Shown one piece after another: positions 2,450 to 41,700 of a stretch of DNA of 64,000 nucleotides (positions within the stretch are counted from its first letter, which is position 1; each line of letters opens with the position of its first letter). The notes beneath the pieces are model-generated. The model was given only the letters and a program-made list of their open reading frames with translations, had not been told where the DNA came from and did no database searches. Where the stretch lies: sequence record MK327935.1. The stretch is one strand, 5' to 3'. The position numbers and the translations under genes were made by a program. This DNA is from Escherichia phage vB_EcoM_G2494.

Positions 2450-2992
2450 TTAAATTTTTCGAATGTATTCAGACCATTCCTTCCCTGTCATTTCGGACCC
2501 GTTCTGGAAACTGAAATATTCATACGGCATCGAGTCAAGATAAAACAGGATCATACATCGCGCCATATAATACCAATCACGATTAAAGTAAACTACGTTA
2601 TCACCAGTACCATCAACCCCTTTATCATAACCATCGCGGGTACGGGCGACCCATTGAATGGTATCATTTTTCTCACGGATAGTAACAGGTTCCCAATATC
2701 CAGCACATCCAGCATGACCACACGAACAAGTAAGGAAATATTGACCTTTTGCTTTGTTGTCATCCCATTCACGATGAATTGGTTTGATTTCGTGAAACAG
2801 TGCCAAACAATCATGATTATGCAACACTGGCTTACCATCAATCAATGCATGGAATGTATACAAACGACCAGTAGACAAATAGCTATCCTCACGCTCAACC
2901 AGTTCAATAGCAATCTTTTTAGCTTGTTCTTTGTGTCGTTGTGCTTTACGCTTACGGTTTAATGATTTCATATTCACCTCACACATTATCAA
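2450..2992 (-). CDS. hypothetical protein, Cys/His-rich
   Basis: ORF track 180 aa. Confidence 0.5.
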   Translation of the reverse strand: MIMCEVNMKSLNRKRKAQRHKEQAKKIAIELVEREDSYLSTGRLYTFHALIDGKPVLHNHDCLALFHEIKPIHREWDDNKAKGQYFLTCSCGHAGCAGYWEPVTIREKNDTIQWVARTRDGYDKGVDGTGDNVVYFNRDWYYMARCMILFYLDSMPYEYFSFQNGSEMTGKEWSEYIRKI

Positions 2993-3534
2993 AGGTCGCG
3001 ATATAGTACATTATGAAAATGAGAACTTGCATTACCAATATTGTAGATAATAAATTCTTCATCCGGCGCTTGCGCTACAAATTGAGTATGAGCAACCGCC
3101 ACAACCTTAAAAATACGATCCGTGATCTTGTGTTTAATTTCTGCCCCTACTTCCATAGGAACATATTCATTTGTTTCTGTTTCAGTCGCAAAACAGCCAT
3201 CTTCTTCATAAGCACGAACAAATCGGTCGCAATCAGTACGCTTAACAAATTCAAGAGTATATAATTCTCGTGAATTGTCGGTATAGACCAATACAGAATT
3301 ATTATGATAGCGAATCACATACAGGTTATTATCATCGTCAATTACGCAAAAGCTACGGATTCCTTCGCCTTTACTCCAGCAGATATTAACCACCGTTCCT
3401 CTAATAAAAAAACTTTCCTTTAAATTAAAACTAGCCAATGTGCTAGCGTGCATTTTAACAACAACACCATCGCCAATTTCCAGTTTACGAAGTTTAACTT
3501 CTTTGCTCAGTACACAAAACATCATCATCATCAT
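2989..3534 (-). CDS. hypothetical protein
   Basis: ORF track 181 aa; promoter 3564-3591 upstream. Confidence 0.5.
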   Translation of the reverse strand: MMMMMFCVLSKEVKLRKLEIGDGVVVKMHASTLASFNLKESFFIRGTVVNICWSKGEGIRSFCVIDDDNNLYVIRYHNNSVLVYTDNSRELYTLEFVKRTDCDRFVRAYEEDGCFATETETNEYVPMEVGAEIKHKITDRIFKVVAVAHTQFVAQAPDEEFIIYNIGNASSHFHNVLYRDL

Positions 3535-3563
3535 GTTGTCCTCTCGTTGTTTTCGATGTGAGC

Positions 3564-3591
3564 ATTATACATTAGCTAATCAGGTTGTCAA
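3564..3591 (-). promoter_or_regulatory. sigma70-like early promoter (TTGACA-16-TATAAT)
   Basis: Minus strand reads TTGACAacctgattagctaatgTATAAT; member of a repeated promoter family. Confidence 0.6.
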
Positions 3592-3628
3592 CACCCCAAA
3601 ACGAAAAAGCCGACCCTTTCGGATCGGC
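3592..3628 (-). terminator. rho-independent terminator downstream of nrdD
   Basis: Minus-strand RNA hairpin gccgaucc-gaaa-gggucggc followed by UUUUUCGUUUU; 6 nt after nrdD stop. Confidence 0.6.
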
Positions 3629-3634
3629 TGAAAA

Positions 3635-5497
3635 TTACATGTGCTTAACGCGGTTTACCATCTCGGAGTGTTTCCCGTGGTTAAATGGACGCAGATCAAC
3701 AGATCCAAGATATCCACTAACGCGACGGATAACATTCATCTTTTCCAGATTGTCATTGCCGCAATCAGGACAAACAAAACCAGACTCGGTCGCTCTCATT
3801 TCCTTATTAGATCCGCATACATGACATACATCAGAAGGAGTATTAACACCGAAGTAGTGCAATTTATCCATTGCATAGTCCACTACAGTTTCAAGACCTT
3901 TCAGGTTGTTTTTCATGTCTGGGAACTCAACATAAGAGATCATGCCACCGGACGCCAGCCAGTGATAATCTTTCTCAAAGTCGATTTTCTCAAATGGAGT
4001 GACTTTCCGGTCTACGTCAAGGTGGAATGAGTTGGTGTACCAGTCTTTATCGGTAGCACCCTTAACAATACCAAATTGCTCTCGGTCCAGTCGATTAAAT
4101 CGATAGCAAAGGCTCTCGGCTGGCGTACCGTAAAGACTAAACCCAAGTCCGGTTTCGTCCTTCCATTTTTCAGTATAATGACGCAAGATCTTAAGAATAT
4201 GTTTACCGTATCGCTGCGCATCTTCCGAATCAAACGGATGAACATCAAACAGGACGCTCAATACCTCATGTAAACCAATATATCCAAGAGAGATACTAGC
4301 GCGACCATCTTTCAGAACTTCCAAAATTTCATCGTTTTGATGAATACGGAAAAACGCACCTTCGGTATACAGTACAGGAGCAACATTAGCTTTAGCGCCT
4401 TTTAAAGCGTCTACGCGACTCATGAGCGCATCAAAACAAATAGGCATACGATTAGCTAGCTCTTGTTCGAATAGCTCAATTCTGCGCATTACAGACGCTT
4501 TACCAGCACGACGCGCGGCAATAAGGGCAATACGCGGAAGATTCAGAGTCACAACACCTAAGTTATTACGTCCGTCTAATACTTCTTCGCCTTTCTCATT
4601 ATGCCACACACCCAGGAAGCTACGACAACCCATCGGGCTAACCGGAACACTAGATCCAGTGATACTACGGTTATTCTTCGCAGAGATATAATCAGGGTAA
4701 AGACGCTTACTAGAACATTCCAATGCAAGTTGCTTAATGTCGTAGTTCGGATCTTCCGGTTTAAGGTTTAATCCTTCTTCTAAGAACATCACCAGCTTAG
4801 GAAACACCGGAGTGATACCATCTTTACCTAAACCTTTAGTTCGAACTTTCAGGATCGCTTTCTGAATCAGTTTTTCTTCCCAGCTAGTCCCCATACCAAA
4901 TGTTAAAGTCACAAAAGGTGTTTGACCGTTGGTGGAGAACAAAGTGTTGATTTCATATTCCAACGCTTGATACCCGTCTAGCGTTTCTTTTTCTGTCTTC
5001 TCTTGTGCATAGAGAGTATCCGCTTTGATTCCGTAGGTTTCGGCATCAGCAAGGTGTTTATGATATGTTTTCTCAACATACGGTGCTAACACCTGATCGA
5101 TGTTTGCAATTGTGGTCCCGCCATATTGATGACTTGCCACCTGTGCGATAATTTGAGCGGTTACAGCACATGCAACACCGATCGATTTAGGACTTTCGAT
5201 TTGTGCGCTACCCAATTTAAAACCATTCTCTAACATGTCTTTGAGATTAACAAGACAGCAGTTAGTAAACGGCATAGCGGGTGCATAATCCATATCATGA
5301 TAATGAATGTCACCGTCTACATGCGCTTTATAGATGTGCTCAGGTAACACGGTTTTAGCAATCTGTTTAGACACAGCACCAGCAATCAGATCTCGACGTG
5401 TCGGGAATGTTCGCGCGTCTTTGTTCGCGTTCTCTTTGCTTACTTCGTTTTCTTTACCCGTTGCGATCTCTGTAATGTCTTTGATTAGTTTTTCCAT
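3635..5497 (-). CDS. nrdD: anaerobic ribonucleoside-triphosphate reductase
   Basis: 620 aa; resembles T4 NrdD along its length; C-terminal glycyl-radical motif RRVSGYLG and Cys-x2-Cys zinc site; no intron interruption. Confidence 0.9.
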   Translation of the reverse strand: MEKLIKDITEIATGKENEVSKENANKDARTFPTRRDLIAGAVSKQIAKTVLPEHIYKAHVDGDIHYHDMDYAPAMPFTNCCLVNLKDMLENGFKLGSAQIESPKSIGVACAVTAQIIAQVASHQYGGTTIANIDQVLAPYVEKTYHKHLADAETYGIKADTLYAQEKTEKETLDGYQALEYEINTLFSTNGQTPFVTLTFGMGTSWEEKLIQKAILKVRTKGLGKDGITPVFPKLVMFLEEGLNLKPEDPNYDIKQLALECSSKRLYPDYISAKNNRSITGSSVPVSPMGCRSFLGVWHNEKGEEVLDGRNNLGVVTLNLPRIALIAARRAGKASVMRRIELFEQELANRMPICFDALMSRVDALKGAKANVAPVLYTEGAFFRIHQNDEILEVLKDGRASISLGYIGLHEVLSVLFDVHPFDSEDAQRYGKHILKILRHYTEKWKDETGLGFSLYGTPAESLCYRFNRLDREQFGIVKGATDKDWYTNSFHLDVDRKVTPFEKIDFEKDYHWLASGGMISYVEFPDMKNNLKGLETVVDYAMDKLHYFGVNTPSDVCHVCGSNKEMRATESGFVCPDCGNDNLEKMNVIRRVSGYLGSVDLRPFNHGKHSEMVNRVKHM

Positions 5498-32817: not shown

Positions 32818-32825
32818 TATAAATA
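32818..32825 (+). promoter_or_regulatory. T4 late promoter box TATAAATA (gene 53)
   Basis: TATAAATA about 32 nt upstream of gp53 ATG. Confidence 0.55.
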
Positions 32826-32857: not shown

Positions 32858-33412
32858 ATGCTCTTTTCTTTCTTCCCTGCCATTGAATACAACGGCAAGA
32901 TGATTACTGACATTGTGCGCAATTACCGCGCATATTTCAACGCAATAATTTCTGATTATAACATACAAACATATTACATTCAAGGTAGTCCACGACCGGA
33001 ACAAGTTGCATATGAAGTATACGGAAACCAACAACTTTATTGGATCTTGCTGATGCTTAATGACGTATACGATCCGTTCCATGACTGGATCACCGATCAA
33101 GAGACAGCATATGAATCAGCCGAACAGCGATATGCAAATGTAGGAGGAAATCAAGTATTATACCATGTTGATATTGACGGAAACAAGTATTGGAATCTTA
33201 CCGAATATCCGAAAGGATCAAGCAATTGGTATGATAAAGGGGATATTCATCACCGTTATTTGCAGTTTCAGGGTGCATTGTCGGCAGTAGACACACTGGA
33301 AGATGCGATCCTCCGCAATGAGGAACGACGCAAGATCAAGATCATAGATCCTACACAAATTAAACAATTTATTAACGCATTCATTCGAGAAATGGAAAAG
33401 GCTGATGTGTAA
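32858..33412 (+). CDS. 53: baseplate wedge protein gp53
   Basis: 184 aa; immediately upstream of gene 5 as in T4. Confidence 0.7.
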   Translation: MLFSFFPAIEYNGKMITDIVRNYRAYFNAIISDYNIQTYYIQGSPRPEQVAYEVYGNQQLYWILLMLNDVYDPFHDWITDQETAYESAEQRYANVGGNQVLYHVDIDGNKYWNLTEYPKGSSNWYDKGDIHHRYLQFQGALSAVDTLEDAILRNEERRKIKIIDPTQIKQFINAFIREMEKADV

Positions 33413-33423
33413 GGTGATTAATT

Positions 33424-35223
33424 ATGCTAATGTTTAATAACTCCGTTAAATGGTTTACCGGAATTGTAGAAAACAGGGAAGACCCATTAATGCTGGGGCG
33501 TGTTCAGGTTAGGATTCATGGTATACATCCCTCGCTATCCGCGCACGGTGACATTCAAGGTCTTCCAACCGAAGATCTATTATGGATTACGCCAGTACAA
33601 GATATTACAAGCGCGGCGATCTCCGGTATAGGTCAAAGCCCTACTGGTATTGTTGAAGGTTCAATGGTATTTGGTTTGGCTTTAGATGAACGTTATTTAA
33701 ACTGCGTTATTCTGGGTACTATTGCCGGACAATATACAGAGAAACCACTCACTACAGAGGGTTTTTGTGACCCTTCTGGTGCATATCCTCGTTATATTGG
33801 TAATGATGTTAATATTCTTGCTCGTGGCGGTATTAACCCAGAAACCGGGCAAACAACAAAACCTGATAGTGTCTATATTCGAGATGAAAACACTGGAGTT
33901 GCAGTAAATCCAGACGACGAGCCATTAGACCAAATTCCGGTTGATGATAATCCTGATTTTACAATAGAAAAAATGCTGCGGGGCGATGAGGGATATCGCG
34001 AGAAATGGTATCTTGATTCAGAAGGATATCCGACAATAGGCATCGGGCATTTGATCATTTATAAGAAAACCAGTGATCTGGGTATTATCAATAATGAACT
34101 TTCTAAGCTGGTAGGGCGTGAAGTTACAAACGGAAGACTTACAGCCGAAGAAGTTAGTAAAGTATTTGCTGACGATATAGAAAAGACTCGTCGTGATATG
34201 CGCAAACATCCACGAATTGCACCTGTCTATAATAAATGTAATGCCTCACGTCGTATGGCATTAGAAAATATGGCGTTTCAAATGGGTGTTAGTGGATTGG
34301 GTAAATTTAAGAATAGTCTTGCTGCGATGTTAGCGGAAGAATGGAAACAAGCCTATGATGGATTACGTCAATCGGTGTGGGCTAACCAAACTCCAGGACG
34401 TTCAAGCCGTGTTTCTAAAATTATTCTTACCGGTAACTTAGAATCATATGGCGTAATTGCTCCAAAGAAAGAGGAATCTGTTTCTGAGGATCCGCGAGCA
34501 CGTTTGAGAAATGCCCGTATTGCTGCCTATAAGACGCAGAGAGCAGAAGAAGACCCAGAAGCACCGTTTACCCCACAAGACACACGAATCATGTTTAAAG
34601 AGCCTAAGAGTTCGTATTCTGCAAGGTATCCATATAACCATGTGTACGAGTCAGAGAGCGGTCATATTATCGAGATTGATGATACTCCTTCTCATGAGCG
34701 ATATCATCGTAAACATCCTTCGGGTACATTTGAAGAAACCAGACCGGACGGAACGAGGGTAGAAAAGATTGAAGGTGATGATTATCTGATCGTTAAGCAA
34801 GGCCGTAAAGTAAACGTTAAGGGTAATTTGCAAGTTGTTGTTGAAGGTGACGCGCAAGTTTATTATATGGGTAATGTGATGCAAACCGTTGATGGTAACG
34901 TCACTGAATTTATTCGTGGCAATGTTAATCAGACCGTTGAAGGTACTGCTAACATGCATGTTGTCGGTGATGTTATCGCACAGCTTGACGCTAATTTAAC
35001 GGCTAATGTCAAGGGTAATGCTGAATTAATGATCGAGGGTAACACTACCGAAACAATTAAAGGTAACTATGATTTAACCGTTGAGGGTAATTTTAATATG
35101 ACCGTCAATGGCACTAAATCAGATCAGGTTAATGGTGACTGGTCCCGTAATTGTGGTGCAAGCGTTAAAGATATTGCATCTGGCACAGTTAAAATTGATG
35201 GTAGCCGTATTGATCTTGGGTGA
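33424..35223 (+). CDS. 5: baseplate hub / tail-associated lysozyme gp5
   Basis: 599 aa; N-terminal domain, T4-lysozyme-like GYPTIGIGHLI region and C-terminal VxGxxxV beta-helix repeats match T4 gp5. Confidence 0.9.
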   Translation: MLMFNNSVKWFTGIVENREDPLMLGRVQVRIHGIHPSLSAHGDIQGLPTEDLLWITPVQDITSAAISGIGQSPTGIVEGSMVFGLALDERYLNCVILGTIAGQYTEKPLTTEGFCDPSGAYPRYIGNDVNILARGGINPETGQTTKPDSVYIRDENTGVAVNPDDEPLDQIPVDDNPDFTIEKMLRGDEGYREKWYLDSEGYPTIGIGHLIIYKKTSDLGIINNELSKLVGREVTNGRLTAEEVSKVFADDIEKTRRDMRKHPRIAPVYNKCNASRRMALENMAFQMGVSGLGKFKNSLAAMLAEEWKQAYDGLRQSVWANQTPGRSSRVSKIILTGNLESYGVIAPKKEESVSEDPRARLRNARIAAYKTQRAEEDPEAPFTPQDTRIMFKEPKSSYSARYPYNHVYESESGHIIEIDDTPSHERYHRKHPSGTFEETRPDGTRVEKIEGDDYLIVKQGRKVNVKGNLQVVVEGDAQVYYMGNVMQTVDGNVTEFIRGNVNQTVEGTANMHVVGDVIAQLDANLTANVKGNAELMIEGNTTETIKGNYDLTVEGNFNMTVNGTKSDQVNGDWSRNCGASVKDIASGTVKIDGSRIDLG

Positions 35224-35231
35224 GGTAACTA

Positions 35232-35798
35232 ATGGTTGAAATTCTTCCGATGAGTTCAAAATTGGAGGATATCAGCGAGCGAGAAATCTTTGAGGTGGTG
35301 TTCTCTTATAAAGCAACGCCACCGGATGCAAATACCACATACACGATTAAAGAGTTTAAGATCAGCGAGTATCGCCCTAATAAGGGCGTTACCGTTGAAG
35401 AAACTAAAATATCTGGTGAGTATCGTGATAGTTTTTCGCTTGGCGCGGATTCTCTTAAATATATAACGAAAGATCGAATTAAAAAATCTGCCGGAAGTTT
35501 TGATGATTTACCAGATCCAACTACCGCAGATCTATATTATTTTAACGCTCCTACACGTCTACAGGAGGTTTATACTTATAAAGTAACCCTAACCTATATC
35601 CAATCTGTTTCAGAGTCTTCTGGGGGTTCTGGTGAAGGAAATAGTGGTGGTTCCAATAGCCGAGAGGGTGCTGGTGAAACTAATCCGCCTCCGGTAGTAA
35701 CAGAACACACAATAGAGAAAGTTTATACTCAAACCGTTTTTGGAAATTGGGATGTGTGGGCGCAGCAACTAAGAGATTATGTACATAGGGGTGTTTAA
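35232..35798 (+). CDS. hypothetical protein (position of T4 5.1)
   Basis: ORF track 188 aa; Gly/Ser-rich C-terminal segment. Confidence 0.45.
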   Translation: MVEILPMSSKLEDISEREIFEVVFSYKATPPDANTTYTIKEFKISEYRPNKGVTVEETKISGEYRDSFSLGADSLKYITKDRIKKSAGSFDDLPDPTTADLYYFNAPTRLQEVYTYKVTLTYIQSVSESSGGSGEGNSGGSNSREGAGETNPPPVVTEHTIEKVYTQTVFGNWDVWAQQLRDYVHRGV

Positions 35799-35852
35799 TG
35801 GCTGGCGGGTGTCGATGCCCCGCCGTCATAAATAGTTATATAATGATTTAAT

Positions 35853-36605
35853 ATGAGGTGTTTTATGATTAAAGTGCATGACGATTTCAAAGAACTTTAT
35901 AATGTATGCTCTGAACGTTTTTATTATGATGAAACGAGCGGAACAATTAGACGAAAATATGATTGTAAGAGCAATCATTATAAAGCGGGTGATGTAGTAG
36001 GATATAAAAGAAAACAAAAAAGAACAAATAGTGAAGATGATGTGTTCTATATGTTTACTAAGATTGATGGAGTTTCTTATTCAATTCAACAAATTGTCTT
36101 CTTGCTTACCGAAGGGTATATACCCAATTGCATCGATCATATTAACAGAGACACACTAGATAATCACCGTGAAAATCTTCGTGATGCATCGCGAAGCGGA
36201 AATGCTCGCAATAAATGCAAGGTATATAAAAATGGTTTCGCCTCTTCCGATTACATTGGTGTGTCTAAGCGGGGTTCTGGATTTAGGTGTCGTATTAGAA
36301 TAGACCATGTTATTGCATATGATGAAACGTTCGAAAATGAAACATCTGCCGCATATGCATATAACGTAGAATGTATAAAATTAGGTGTCAGTGAGTATAC
36401 CAACTTTAATAAATTTGAAGACGAAGAATCTGTTAGGAAACTTTACGAAAAAGAGAAAGAAAATAAAGAGTTTCAAGAATATTGGAAGGGAACACATAAA
36501 CAGGGTAAACGATGGGGCGCTAAAGTTAAGAGTGTGCGTTTGGGTACATTCGAAACAAGGGAAGAAGCTAGACTAGCTATAATTCGCTACAAAGAGGGGT
36601 TTTGA
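35853..36605 (+). CDS. HNH homing endonuclease (AP2/HNH_3-like), freestanding
   Basis: 250 aa; [21 protein letters not shown] motif; inserted between 5.1-like gene and gp5.4; own CATAAATA/TATAAT-like upstream signals. Confidence 0.75.
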
Positions 36606-36898
36606 TGGCTGGTTTATCATATGACAAAGCAAAAACTACTGGACATGGTAATTACGGTCCGACAATAATTAATGCAACTCAATCTAAGGTATTTGTTGAG
36701 GGTATCCCTGTATTAGTCGAAGGAGACCCAATTACACCACATACAAAAACAACAAAGCCTTATGATACACACGGGGGAACTACGGTCGCCAGTACCCCGA
36801 AAGTATTTGTTACCGGAAAGAAAGCAATTCAAATGGCAGATCGTATTAGCTGTGGCGATACCGTCGCTATGGCATCACCGAAGGTATTCATAAAATGA
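36602..36898 (+). CDS. 5.4: baseplate spike tip PAAR-repeat protein gp5.4
   Basis: 98 aa (T4 gp5.4 is 97 aa); position between 5 and 6. Confidence 0.7.
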
Positions 36899-38799
36899 CA
36901 AAGCAAAAGATTACACAAATTCCTGATATTTTTAATGCTGCTACATTCGATGAAATTAAAAGCGCATTAACAGACTGGATGAGAAACCAGGAAGAATTTA
37001 AAGATTTTGATTTTAATGGTGCTGGTATTAACGTATTGATGGACTTGCTCGCATATAACACTCTGTATATTCAGCAATTCGCTAACGCCGCGCTATATGA
37101 ATCTTTTATCAGAACGGCAATTAAGCGTAGTTCAGTTGTTCAAGCCGCGCAAGATTTAGGATATTTGCCAGCAAGTAAAACTAGTGCATCGACCACAATT
37201 ATGTTGCACGTATCACATCCGCGAAATCCGGCAAGTATTCGAATCCCACGAGGAACTAAATTTATTGCAAGTGTGGATCGCCAGACTTCTTACCCGTTTG
37301 TGACTACAGAAGACGTTGTGAGCGTTTTAGGTTCAAATGGTTTATATACGCCTATGCTTAAAGTCGCACAAGGTCGTATTGTTCGTACAGAAATGTTATT
37401 TGATCCGAAGAAACAAATTCTGATCCGTGATCCTGATATTGACCGCGCTCAGGTTAAGTTGTGGGTAGATGGTGCTGAATGGAAAGACTGGACACGAGAA
37501 AGCATTGTTAACGCAACTGGCGCTAGTAATATTTTCTATATGCGTGAAACCGTAGACGGTCATACAGAAATCTTCTTTGGTGAAGGTGAATCAACTTTAT
37601 CTGCTGCTGGCGGGGCGCTGGAAGCAAATTATATTGGTGGACTTAAGCCGTCAACTGGTGCTAATATTGTTATCGAATATATTAGCACTAAAGGCGCGGA
37701 AGCAAACGGTTCAGTTAATTTTACATATGCGGATACCCTTGCATCTATCTCTATTGTTAAAATTATTGAGAATCCGACAAATGATCGTGATTATGTCGGT
37801 GCAGATGGTGGTGGTGATCCTGAATCAATCGAACGTATCCGTGAACTTGCTCCGGTAATGCGTGAATCTCAGCGTCGTTGTGTGACTGCTTCCGACTATG
37901 AGGCTTTTGTGTCTAGCCGTTTTGGTAGTATTGTTCAGGCGGTACAATGTTTCACCGACCGAGAAAAACCGGGTTATGCTTTTGTTGCTGTTAAGCCTAA
38001 ATCTGGCTTGCGCTTGACAACCGTTCAAAAAGAAGATATGCGGGATTATCTGGCAAAATATAACCTTGCCCCTATCACGCCGAGCATCATTGACCCTAAC
38101 TATCTGTATATTAAACAGAATATTAAAGTTTCCTATTCAATCAACGACTTGTCAGAATCAGAGCAGTGGTTGCGCGGTGCGGTTATTGATCAGATTGATG
38201 CATATTATACCGACGAAGTGGAAATTTTTAACCAGACCTTTAGTAAGTCTAAAATGCTTGCGCGTATTGACAAAGCTGATGTATCTGTGATAGGTTCTAG
38301 TGCAGAAATCGAGATGGTGCGCGAGATCGACAACTTCTATAAAGCACCGATGGCGGGAATCAAGTTTTTAAACCAGTATAAGAGCGGAATCAAGTCTAGT
38401 TCATTCAACTTCGAAAAGGACGACAAGCAATATCCGATCCATTATGTAAGTACAGAAATGAACAAAGAATCAGGTTTAGCTAAATTGTTGGTTGGACCTT
38501 TCCCTGTTGATTCTACAATCGCTTTACCGCACTATTCCGGCACTGATTTTGATAAAGAGGTTATTGACGGGGCGGACCTATACTTTGAGGTTGGAGAAGT
38601 TCAGCATTATGACGACCTTATTTCATGGGATCTGGGTAAACTGAATATCAATAGCGATCGCTTTACTGGTTCATATATTGAGTTGACAGCTAAACCGATT
38701 GCTGATAACATCTTTACTAAAGACGGTTCTTTGATCGTGTTTGAAAACGATCTCCGTCCTCAGTACACAACTATTAGTCTGGAGGCAATTGCTCAATGA
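36895..38799 (+). CDS. 6: baseplate wedge protein gp6
   Basis: 634 aa; synteny and size (T4 660 aa). Confidence 0.8.
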
Positions 38800-41700
38800 T
38801 TAAAGCGCCTAGTGTAACTAGCTTGACAATAGAAAAATTGTCTGCTAATCAGGCGTATATCACATGGGATGACGTAGGCGAAAACTTCTTTTATTTTGTG
38901 GAGTTAGCCGAAACCAGAACACGAGACGGGGAGATCATCCCCGTCGATGAGTTAAGCTGGGTAAACCTGGGATATACTGCCGACCAAAACTGGTTTGAGG
39001 ATAAAAACCTTTTTCCAGAATATTATTACAAATTTCGTGTAGCAGTAGCCGCAGAAGGATTTGAACAAAGTAAATGGATTGAAACCGAAGAGTTTCAGAC
39101 ATTTAAAACAAACGCATATAATTTTTCTATGATGCGAGAGTTCAACCTTGCAAACGAGTTTATAAAGGAAAAATTTACATACGATAATCGAGAGTATGTC
39201 AAGTTTAATACCGACCTTATTCAAGCATCATTGATGAAGGAAGATTTTGTCTTTAGTCCTGAATATGCAAACATGACAAATATCTCAAACTACATTGTAG
39301 TTGATGAGAACTTTCATGAAATACAGGATCACATAGAAAAAGTTTGTATTGATATAAACCGCACTATGTTAGCGGAAATGAACGGTGTTTTGTACCTTTT
39401 CGAACGGTTCCAGCCGATTGTGAAAGTGTCAAATGATAAAGGTCAATCATGGAAAGCATACAAGGCTTTTAATGACCGTGTAGGAAATCCGGTTTCCCGC
39501 ACATGCGTTTATCAGTCTAAAACCACTACTTACGTTTTAGGATATGACCGAATCTTTTACGGACGACAAGCTAGCGATACTCGATGGAGCGCGGACGATG
39601 TTCGATTTAGTGATGATACGATCACTTTTGCAAAGGTTGGTGACGAGAACGATTTAGGCATTGACGTTGAGGTCTTTGGTGTATTTTCCAGATTAACAGG
39701 GGACACCACAAAATACGCCGAAGCTATGGCGTGCAGTGATGACTATTTGTGGGTTGGTGCTAAAGATGTTATTCGCCGGATTCGTCTTAAGAATACTCCA
39801 GTTGATACCGTACAGGGTTCGCCTACGTTTGGAGAAAAAATATTCGATCCTGATGTTATCCGAGTAACAGGAAATGATAAAGCTGTCATTCAGAAAATGG
39901 ATGTGATCGACGGTAAATTGCTTGTATTTGTTACTGGTGAAGTTAAACAGCGTTATCAAGATCCAACCAAACCAGAAAACGTTGTTCCGTCAGATGATGC
40001 GGGTGTATACTTAATAGGGAGTGATGGTCTGTCTTTTCAGAGAGTATTTGGCAACACTCCGCAGGAAAGGGAATATATTCAGCATGGGTTCAGTAATATG
40101 TCAACCAATGGTGATGAGGTGTTTATAAGCCATTATAATCATCACTTCGAAAGCATTTTACCTGATCCAGAAACTGCCGCGAAATATGAATTGGGCGAAG
40201 CTGTAAAATATTCTCAGGAGCCAACTTATCTAACTGATAAGAAAATACATCAAACTACTTTCAGAGCAAGTTATGATGATTTGCGTATTTGGGAGTTAGG
40301 ACCGCAAGCGTATTATAATGAGGCCGACTATACATGGATGCGTCGAAACGGTGTTCGTGTATGGATCACAAATGATAATCGCCCGTTGGTTGTTTATCCA
40401 GAAGTTGTCTATACGCAGGAAGTTGATACTTCCGGCATTCTTGATAAAAACAGAATTAACCGTGAAGTTTATGATAAAGGGACCGTGACCTGTTATCTTA
40501 ACAATGTTAAATTTGAAGGATTCAAACAATATGCATCCGGTGTAATGTTCCATAAAAACACGGGAGAGATCATTGGATTCTATCAATTTAATTATCGTGT
40601 TCGTGACCAAGTTGGTGTATATTGGAAACCTACAAATGTAGCATTTGTTGCTGAATTGCAAAATCAGGTTCGAGAGGTTCCCTGGGTTCCGGTTCACTAC
40701 GATCGAGAGCAAGATCCAGATTTGCGACCTTTACTGAATAAGATGACACCTGATAGCTTTTTACTTGAGAACGAAAATTTCAGAAAATTCTCTGAATATT
40801 ATCTGCAATTCTTAAGTGATGGTTCAGGAACATATTATAATAAACTAAAAAATCTGATTAAAAACAAATATCCACGCGAGCAAGATGCATATGAGTATCT
40901 TTGGTCAGAGATGAACAAACGAAACATCTATGCAGATAAAAACAAGCGAGATGCGGTAGTAAGATTCTTTGAATCCCGCAAATCAGATTTTTATTCCACT
41001 AAGGGCGTGGAGGCTTCTTATAAGTTCTTGTTTAAGTTACTTTATAATGAAGATGTGGAAATTGAGGTTGAATCACAAGCCGGACTAGAGTATGATATTG
41101 TTGTTAGTTCAACGAACATTGACGAGGATATCGTAGGTCGCACGATTTATACCCCGACCGGACGGGCTAACGTGACTTATCTTGAAAGGGAATATGAAGG
41201 TGGACGTCTACGCTGGCGAGTAACCATTCATAACCTGATCGGGCGGTTCGAAGAAGGTCAAGTGATCAAATCAGAGAAAACAGCGTTTGAAGGGATGATC
41301 CTTGTTGGTGTGCGTGGTAAAGAGTTGTTGAGTAGTTCAATCGACTATATCAACCGCTCACGAAGCCAATACACCATGAAGATTAAAAGTGCATTGCCAG
41401 TTTCGCGCTATGCAAATGATGTAATGCGATTCGTTCATCCTGTCGGCTTTGGGTTTATCGGTGTTACCCTGCTTACGATGTTCATTAACAGCGGGTTGAG
41501 CATGAAGCACACCGAGACGATAATTCAATCTCTGAAAAATTATAAGTTTGACAGCGGATTGCCTAGCGTGTATCCTGATCGGGTGGCAGACCTTGACGTT
41601 GACGGAAACATTAAGAAAGACCCACTAACAGGGAAACCATTATACTTAACGTCACCGACAATGGGCGAAGAGTTCCCCGTTCCTCCTGAATATGATCAGG

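Follow-up and report, generated by a model that had tools for sequence, protein, structure and literature searches.

A putative AP2-HNH homing endonuclease gene at the 5.1/5.4 junction of the baseplate cluster in an RB49-like coliphage

Introduction

For T4-type phages, freestanding homing endonuclease genes are textbook material, and the gene analyzed here, already annotated and published as ORF137 of phage GEC-3S, conforms to the textbook in its class, genomic habit and regulatory themes. The closest precedent by position is T4 segC, a freestanding homing endonuclease gene located at 5.1/5.3 (PMC2988022) and thus, like the present gene, lying directly downstream of 5.1 in the 5-to-6 interval (PMC2988022, Table 1); segC also overlaps its upstream ORF and has no promoter of its own (PMC2988022). 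The two differ in family, however, the segC product being a GIY-YIG enzyme and the protein described here a predicted HNH enzyme. The genes for T4 MobA and MobE are comparable in being freestanding HNH genes in gaps between conserved genes, and the T4 mob genes are similar as well in that many have no promoter to themselves and depend on translational linkage with adjacent genes, but their C-terminal DNA-binding regions are not AP2 and their sites are near genes of nucleotide metabolism rather than in the baseplate cluster. MobA and MobE nick their targets yet are inherited at high frequency (PMC2988022). Different endonucleases at the same intergenic site have been described in T4-type phages, with SegH/Hef replacing mobC/mobE (Sandegren et al. 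2005, as cited in PMC2988022).

The AP2-HNH class of homing endonucleases has been reported from phages, cyanobacteria and protists (Magnani et al. 2004, as cited in PMC1524935 and PMC10448857), and examples are on record for RB49 and RB43 (PMC1524935) as well as for further phages (PMC10448857). The arrangement of an N-terminal HNH domain followed by C-terminal AP2, as in RB49 ORF040c, is shared by the protein studied here, and RB49-group phages carry several AP2-HNH genes at other sites. A further point of comparison is I-HmuI of Bacillus phage SPO1 (PDB 1u3e), an HNH nicking homing endonuclease that the predicted nuclease half of the present protein resembles in fold, at a sequence identity of only 16%. 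The gene for I-HmuI lies within a group I intron, and its product binds DNA through helical/HTH domains, whereas the present protein is encoded by a freestanding gene and has two predicted AP2 domains.

ORF137 of GEC-3S (BN201_0137, YP_009118820.1) encodes 246 aa, is labeled 'putative HNH homing endonuclease' in GenBank, and was listed in 2012 as one of a pair of homing endonuclease genes that no other RB49-group phage shared with GEC-3S (Merabishvili et al., PMC3528706, Table 2). The gene described below corresponds in identity and site to ORF137 and to its orthologues in Skers, W115, JEP8 and Whisky (98.4-99.6% protein identity), with a few point differences, such as M63 in the window versus L63. 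In the literature searched, no experimental test of GEC-3S ORF137 or its orthologues was found. The current understanding of homing endonucleases is left unchanged by the present analysis; what is added is the exact anatomy of the insertion, the tandem-AP2 architecture, a candidate target in the form of a linked and recoded stretch of 53 nt that replaces Pro by Gly in the PAAR tip, and the use of the short 5.1-6 interval by two or three unrelated HNH-AP2 genes. The preferred reading, to which a probability of about 0.85 is assigned, is that of a freestanding, intron-less AP2-HNH homing endonuclease cassette inserted precisely at the overlap of 5.1 and 5.4.

Gene and neighborhood

The window, that is the whole stretch of DNA analyzed, comprises 64 kb of Escherichia phage vB_EcoM_G2494 (MK327935.1). 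It contains an intact ORF of 250 aa at 35853-36605 on the + strand, in the translation of which the 18-residue motif quoted in a preliminary description of this locus is present. The endonuclease gene is likelier to start at ATG 35865 (246 aa) than at the ORF edge at 35853, since a GAGG Shine-Dalgarno sequence lies 6 nt upstream of this ATG and the same start is used in all five GenBank orthologues. The gene and its surroundings are as follows.

32858-33412: gp53, upstream of the 5.1 group
33424-35223: gp5 hub/lysozyme, upstream of gene 5.1
35232-35798, + strand: gene 5.1, 188 aa, the upstream neighbor, with stop TAA at 35796-35798 (PHROG 1168, E 2e-54)
35855-35858, + strand: GAGG Shine-Dalgarno sequence, 6 nt 5' of ATG 35865 (sequence)
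35865-36605, + strand: putative HNH-AP2 homing endonuclease gene, 246 aa plus stop (profiles, alignment, predicted structure)
36605-36898, + strand: gene 5.4, 97 aa, PAAR tip of the central spike, the downstream neighbor (Pfam PAAR_motif, E 2e-10; RB49 annotation)

The upstream neighbor is orthologous to RB49 gene 5.1 and gp6 follows gp5.4, so that the 5.1-endonuclease-5.4 group is flanked by gp53, gp5 and gp6. The placement between a 5.1-like gene and gp5.4, made in the preliminary description from the sequence alone, was therefore correct by the profile matches and by RB49 orthology. Gene 5.4 begins at ATG 36605, the A of which is shared with the endonuclease stop (TGATG), and not at TTG 36602 as in the ORF list. 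For annotation, the start codons are hereby fixed at 35865 for the endonuclease and 36605 for gene 5.4, and the ORF is to be described as a mobile passenger and not as a baseplate component. In many GenBank records of Krischvirus the product of gene 5.4 is labeled 'phospholipase', against its match to the Pfam PAAR motif, and this name looks like a propagated misannotation.

Anatomy of the insertion

Alignment with phages in which the site is empty delimits an insert of 807 bp, placed exactly at the overlap between the 5.1 stop and the 5.4 start. The following elements were recognized at its edges.

35788-35805, + strand: upstream copy of the junction repeat, GGGGTGTTTAATGGCTGG, including the 5.1 stop and a vestigial 5.4 start ATG at 35798-35800; the insert starts after it (alignment)
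35798-35829, + strand: GC-rich RNA/DNA hairpin, AUGGCUGGCGGG...CCCGCCGUCAU, about -18 kcal/mol, with no U-tract (fold energy)
35798-35851, + strand: remnant 17-codon frame, MAGGCRCPAVINSYIMI followed by a stop, opened by the vestigial 5.4 start (translation)
36596-36612, + strand: downstream copy of the junction repeat, GGGGTTTTGATGGCTGG (alignment with empty-site phages)

The two junction copies, between which the insert lies, are imperfect. At the downstream edge, the last codons of the endonuclease gene supply gene 5.4 again with a G-rich ribosome-binding stretch and with an overlap of stop and start (TGATG), the two features found before 5.4 where the site is empty, and to judge from this arrangement the translational coupling of the essential tip protein 5.4 would be kept. 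The locus is a clean natural example of a freestanding cassette slotted into coupled essential late genes with their coupling apparently unbroken. At the upstream edge, the hairpin, which the preliminary description had already reported, pairs the vestigial 5.4 AUG and is kept in all insert-bearing phages. The remnant 17-codon frame stops 13 nt before the endonuclease ATG; that it acts in termination-reinitiation is a speculation.

The coding sequence of the insert has a GC content of 35.2%, compared with 41% in both flanks. A search of positions 35500-36900 against Rfam gave no family match at E<=1, group I introns included, by which an intron or another known RNA element is excluded. An intron-encoded homing endonuclease was rejected on the same result and on the completeness of the flanking ORFs without splicing.

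Distribution among Krischvirus

A 2.5-kb query around the ORF matched 59 phage records, all of them RB49-like coliphages of the genus Krischvirus, with Skers (98.8%) and GEC-3S (98.6%) as the best matches, and on this sequence similarity the window phage is assigned to the same genus of RB49-like T4-type phages. The endonuclease gene is present in six of the 59 records (five phages: Skers, GEC-3S, W115, JEP8 and Whisky). At least 34 records among the matches listed align in two pieces spanning 1,693-1,694 bp, without exactly 807 bp. The empty site was found in about 45 Krischvirus records, in which the end of 5.1 and the beginning of 5.4 overlap in the sequence TAATG, and this junction was aligned at base level in RB49, Phi1, JSE, kaaroe and PHB13. 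The junction is likewise empty in phiS, a more distant Krischvirus; in Merlin, a Moonvirus, the two genes abut without an insert, the overlap being TGATG.

The element is nearly identical (at least 98.4% at the protein level, tblastn) in phages whose flanks are nearest to those of phages with no endonuclease or with another one at the site. For the 2-kb flanks, the nearest phage to the window is KFS-EC on the upstream side and kaaroe on the downstream side; for JEP8 it is RB49, and for W115 it is kaaroe. Among the six gene copies, 14 variable codons are silent and 8 are replacements, and all frames are intact, a ratio that indicates purifying selection on the endonuclease gene.

The comparison of the 5-5.4 interval across relatives, proposed in the preliminary description, thus found a gene that is not conserved at its site. 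This bears on whether the product might be a structural or accessory protein of the baseplate with merely an HNH-like motif, as its location within the baseplate cluster and its co-orientation and translational linkage with 5.4 might suggest. The gene is lacking in about 90% of the close relatives, whose baseplate is the same, and by this pattern of presence and absence a structural role is effectively refuted, its probability being negligible. The earlier proposal of an invasion of a structural operon by a mobile endonuclease gains support instead from the sporadic presence of the gene, the precise placement of the 807 bp at the 5.1/5.4 overlap, the low GC content, the mixed flanks, and two features detailed below, the linked patch in 5.4 and a second occupant of the site.

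Protein architecture

The preliminary description had called the product an HNH/AP2-type endonuclease and had proposed a profile search as a check. Residues 75-115 of the 246-aa protein match Pfam HNH_3 (PF13392) at 32.2 bits (E 8e-8), above the cut-off of 24.8 bits, and PHROG 99 'HNH endonuclease' is matched at E 1e-39, so that the HNH part of the name stands. The AP2 part is weakly matched by Pfam, under the cut-off (E 0.017), but it is confirmed by the predicted structure. HNH_3 and AP2 were the only Pfam families matched at E<=0.5, with neither a GIY-YIG nor a structural-protein profile among them; PHROG likewise gave no structural-protein profile for the endonuclease. The lack of such a match and a predicted fold made of a nuclease and DNA-binding domains both argue further against a structural protein. 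NCBIfam and PADLOC returned no matches, so that the protein has neither a name from a curated family nor a connection with defence systems.

The AlphaFold model, a confident one (mean pLDDT 91.9, pTM 0.79), divides the protein into the following parts.

aa 1-73: N-terminal beta domain (AlphaFold model)
aa 74-116: predicted HNH beta-beta-alpha-metal core with D91, H92, N104 and N113 (model and alignment)
aa ~130-172: predicted AP2 domain 1, with a beta-beta-beta-alpha unit at 133-172 (AlphaFold model)
aa 187-206: long linker helix (AlphaFold model)
aa ~208-246: predicted AP2 domain 2, with a beta-beta-beta-alpha unit at 210-245 (AlphaFold model)

In the fold comparison, the HNH half is predicted to adopt a beta-beta-alpha-metal fold like that of the solved HNH homing endonuclease I-HmuI. 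Foldseek ranks the DNA complex of WRINKLED1, a double-AP2 protein, first (probability 1.0, 147 columns), and the two beta-beta-beta-alpha units of the predicted structure match the AP2 domains of TEM1, WRI1 and AtERF1; aligned homologues of the endonuclease carry PF00847. Two AP2 domains and a long helix are thus predicted here, as in plant WRINKLED1, whereas most close relatives in the alignment of 28 relatives (A1) have one AP2 domain. By model and alignment, the protein is identified as an HNH nuclease with tandem AP2 DNA-binding domains of the AP2-HNH homing endonuclease class. In the phage literature searched, no experimentally tested member of this class was found, and the protein, if active, would add a characterized AP2-HNH enzyme with tandem AP2 domains; it might also serve as a marker-exclusion tool for RB49-group therapeutic phages.

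An exhaustive HMMER search among 1.84 billion representative proteins gave 14,746 relatives at E<=1e-3, compared with only 6 proteins from a word-indexed homologue search. Above 50% identity the HMMER search found only the protein's own cluster, the next-best clusters being 30-40% identical. Within the 64-kb window, tblastn with the protein finds only its own gene and no paralogue. A sequence search of the PDB was discarded, as it gave matches to Mos1 transposase at chance level (E about 0.5); I-HmuI and the AP2 proteins were reached via fold comparison.

In the alignment of 28 relatives and a wider set of 251 related HNH segments, the columns of D91, H92, N100, N104, N113 and N116 are invariant or nearly so; among the 251 domains those of D91, H92 and N104 do not vary, and that of N113 has Asn in 247. 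D91, H92, N104 and N113 correspond to the metal-site and general-base residues of the HNH superfamily (Asp-His, structural Asn, metal-binding Asn). This protein has Gln at position 75, which belongs to the 'HR' motif preceding the HNH core; the column has His in 225 of 248 sequences (91%), Ser in 14 and Gln in 5 (~2%). The change from His to Gln could reduce activity; this His is family-typical and is not known to be catalytic. The substitution of a near-invariant residue would fit an enzyme that brought the insert in by homing but has since lost its activity or been domesticated, persisting as a neutral passenger or as a sequence-specific DNA-binding protein that acts through its two AP2 domains, such as a regulator, and the rarity of the element (6 of about 58 records) and the co-option of AP2 domains as regulators elsewhere (PMC10448857) are compatible with such a fate. 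It is nevertheless improbable, as none of the core residues D91, H92, N104 and N113 is altered, the six intact frames and the ratio of silent to replacement codons speak for purifying selection, and the different flank backgrounds, together with the origin of the phages from several countries, argue for recent spread.

A recoded patch in gene 5.4

Immediately downstream of the insert, gene 5.4 of the window differs from that of every endonuclease-free relative in a short patch.

36613-36665, + strand: recoded patch in 5.4, 16 substitutions in 53 nt, codons 3-21 (comparison with every endonuclease-free relative)

Twelve of the changes are lone third-position substitutions and silent, codon 18 is altered at all three positions (CCA to GGT, P18G), and codon 21 is altered at its first position (V21I). 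When the window is compared with each empty-site phage in 100-nt bins, all bins have 0-9 mismatches except the one after the insert, with 16 in 95 aligned bases. Only 8 nt separate the patch from the edge of the insert, it breaks off sharply after 53 nt, and it is denser than any other in the 4.7 kb of aligned flank; at a background rate of 1.8%, the corrected P of the cluster is about 2e-12. With a 179-nt query, the allele is 98-100% identical only in the six insert-bearing records and in KFS-EC, other Krischvirus records reaching at most 90.5%, and it occurs in none of the about 45 empty-site records.

Pro18 is conserved in the outgroups phiS and Merlin. Polarizing the patch by these two outgroups gave 6 versus 8 and 4 versus 8 matches, the silent sites being saturated; by this comparison Pro18 is clearly the ancestral state and the sole clearly polarized site of the patch.

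The patch is probably a cleavage-resistant or a co-converted version of the endonuclease target, two alternatives that are alike in sequence. A freestanding endonuclease with its target next to its gene would be expected to give this pattern, the carrier having a resistant target or a short co-conversion tract from the original donor. Since KFS-EC has the patch without the window-type endonuclease, the linkage is not absolute. The patch could also be a fragment that hitch-hiked from a divergent donor rather than a selected immunity allele. A different account would see in the substitutions an ordinary mosaic patch acquired from a divergent phage and lying beside the insert by chance. Krischvirus genomes are indeed mosaic, with other patches reaching 7-9 mismatches per 100 nt (for example at 34400-34499), and besides the KFS-EC case, a 5.1 3'-end allele first suspected of being linked to the endonuclease is also found in eight empty-site phages. 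There is nonetheless only a slim chance that the neighborhood is accidental, given the start of the patch so close to the insert, its abrupt end, its position as the densest cluster in the aligned flank, its absence from every empty-site record, and the fact that no donor with the patch sequence was found in the phage collection. With the patch taken as a version of the target, the 53 nt in the PAAR tip gene constitute a concrete and testable candidate.

The segment 34400-34499 itself, inside gene 5, has 6-9 mismatches per 100 nt to most relatives and 2-3 to KFS-EC and JSE, which suggests that the hub/lysozyme gene has a short tract of its own acquired by mosaicism or recombination.

Expression and proposed mechanism

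Two candidate late-promoter sequences were considered for the endonuclease gene.

32818-32825, + strand: TATAAATA, exact T4-type late-promoter consensus, 33 nt 5' of gene 53 (sequence; presumed promoter)
35827-35834, + strand: CATAAATA, 7-of-8 match to the late-promoter consensus, weak candidate (sequence)

The 'promoter-like boxes' of the preliminary description did not hold up: they come down to a TATAAT at 35839 and the CATAAATA at 35827, and a scan of the 67-nt leader for sigma-70 promoters and terminators found nothing. CATAAATA has 4 matches in the window compared with 5.0 expected by chance, and exact TATAAATA matches in the window are no commoner than chance; on these counts, a promoter belonging to the endonuclease gene was rejected as unsupported. 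As the leader has no sigma-70 promoter, CATAAATA is at chance frequency and an exact TATAAATA stands upstream of gene 53, read-through from the late operon appears to be the source of expression, and the endonuclease gene probably rides the late operon transcript. The TATAAATA at 32818 would then be the promoter of a 53-5-5.1-(HEG)-5.4-6 late transcript that carries the endonuclease gene. Of the freestanding endonuclease genes of T4, 7 of 12 lack their own promoter (PMC2988022).

In the mechanism proposed, the polycistronic 53-5-5.1-5.4-6 message would yield the 246-aa protein late in infection, and the C-terminal pair of AP2 domains would recognize a particular sequence at the start of 5.4 in co-infecting insert-free relatives. 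The I-HmuI-like HNH domain would then nick or cut at the 5.4 start, and T4-type recombinational repair, with the insert-bearing genome as template, would copy the 807-bp cassette and a short flank of 5.4 into the cut genome. The carrier itself may be shielded in that its own copy of 5.4 has 16 changes in 53 nt, by which the first 20 codons are recoded. Harm to the host phage would be limited by the cassette ends, the last codons restoring the ribosome-binding stretch and the TGATG that couples 5.4, while the hairpin at the 5' edge would bury the leftover 5.4 start codon. We infer the steps of expression, binding or cutting and repair from these data and from the behavior of the T4 Mob and I-Hmu enzymes (PMC2988022), and this holds equally for the cleavage activity, its exact target, the choice between a nick and a cut of both strands, the transcript, and what the hairpin and the junction repeats do. 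The recoding of the carrier's 5.4 and the 5.4-preserving cassette ends are read from the sequence comparison, and the present data also show the gene and its fold, the unaltered catalytic residues, the exact point of insertion, the pattern of presence and absence, the linkage of the patch, and purifying selection.

Other endonuclease genes at and near the junction

The 5.1/5.4 junction and its vicinity harbor further HNH-AP2 genes in related phages.

2513-3052 of the KFS-EC segment compared, with the same coordinates in two further segments: second HNH-AP2 gene, 179 aa
KFS-EC, Makalu_003, MIZ4, MIZ5, G5211 and G37-3: the six Krischviruses that carry the second HNH-AP2 gene
3404-3958 of the Whisky segment compared: third HNH-AP2 gene, 184 aa

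The second gene, whose product is about 30% identical to the window protein, occupies the same junction, where it abuts the 5.1 stop and replaces the last 5.1 codons. Both occupants of the junction thus belong to the same broad family, in distinction to the replacement of mobC/mobE by SegH/Hef. In KFS-EC the second gene occurs together with the window-type recoded start of 5.4, and Makalu_003 and GEC-3S belong to the same species but have different occupants. The third gene (HNH_3, E 2e-10; AP2, E 8e-7) lies between 5.4 and 6 and was found in Whisky only in the phage collection, so that in this phage two endonuclease genes flank the 294-bp PAAR gene.

A more ambitious interpretation would make the 5.1/5.4 junction a contested landing pad, on which unrelated HNH-AP2 genes displace one another and in doing so leave a mark on a structural protein. 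In this interpretation the target would be the first 60 nt of 5.4, and the immunity allele would force the Pro-to-Gly change at a PAAR-tip residue conserved across genera; KFS-EC might be a 'doubly protected' product of the contest, and the hairpin and the 17-codon frame might form a purpose-built translational throttle for the endonuclease. Taken jointly, these propositions are put forward tentatively and are doubtful as a set.

The 3' end of 5.1 is itself polymorphic. At 35760-35769 the window, like JEP8, has the RB49-type allele GCGCAGCAAC, whereas another allele, AGTAAACAGT, which alters two amino acids of gp5.1, is found in Skers, GEC-3S, W115 and Whisky, in all phages with the second endonuclease, and in about eight empty-site phages; it is tied to neither endonuclease. 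The possibility that AGTAAACAGT is an immunity allele of the second endonuclease was considered, and a strict link was rejected since eight empty-site phages carry it. Outside the window, related HNH-AP2 genes are located at 39772-40296 in GEC-3S, 68244-68711 in Skers and 141772-142239 in E26, where they adjoin dam and the helicase-loader gene 59 at sites that are variable within Krischvirus.
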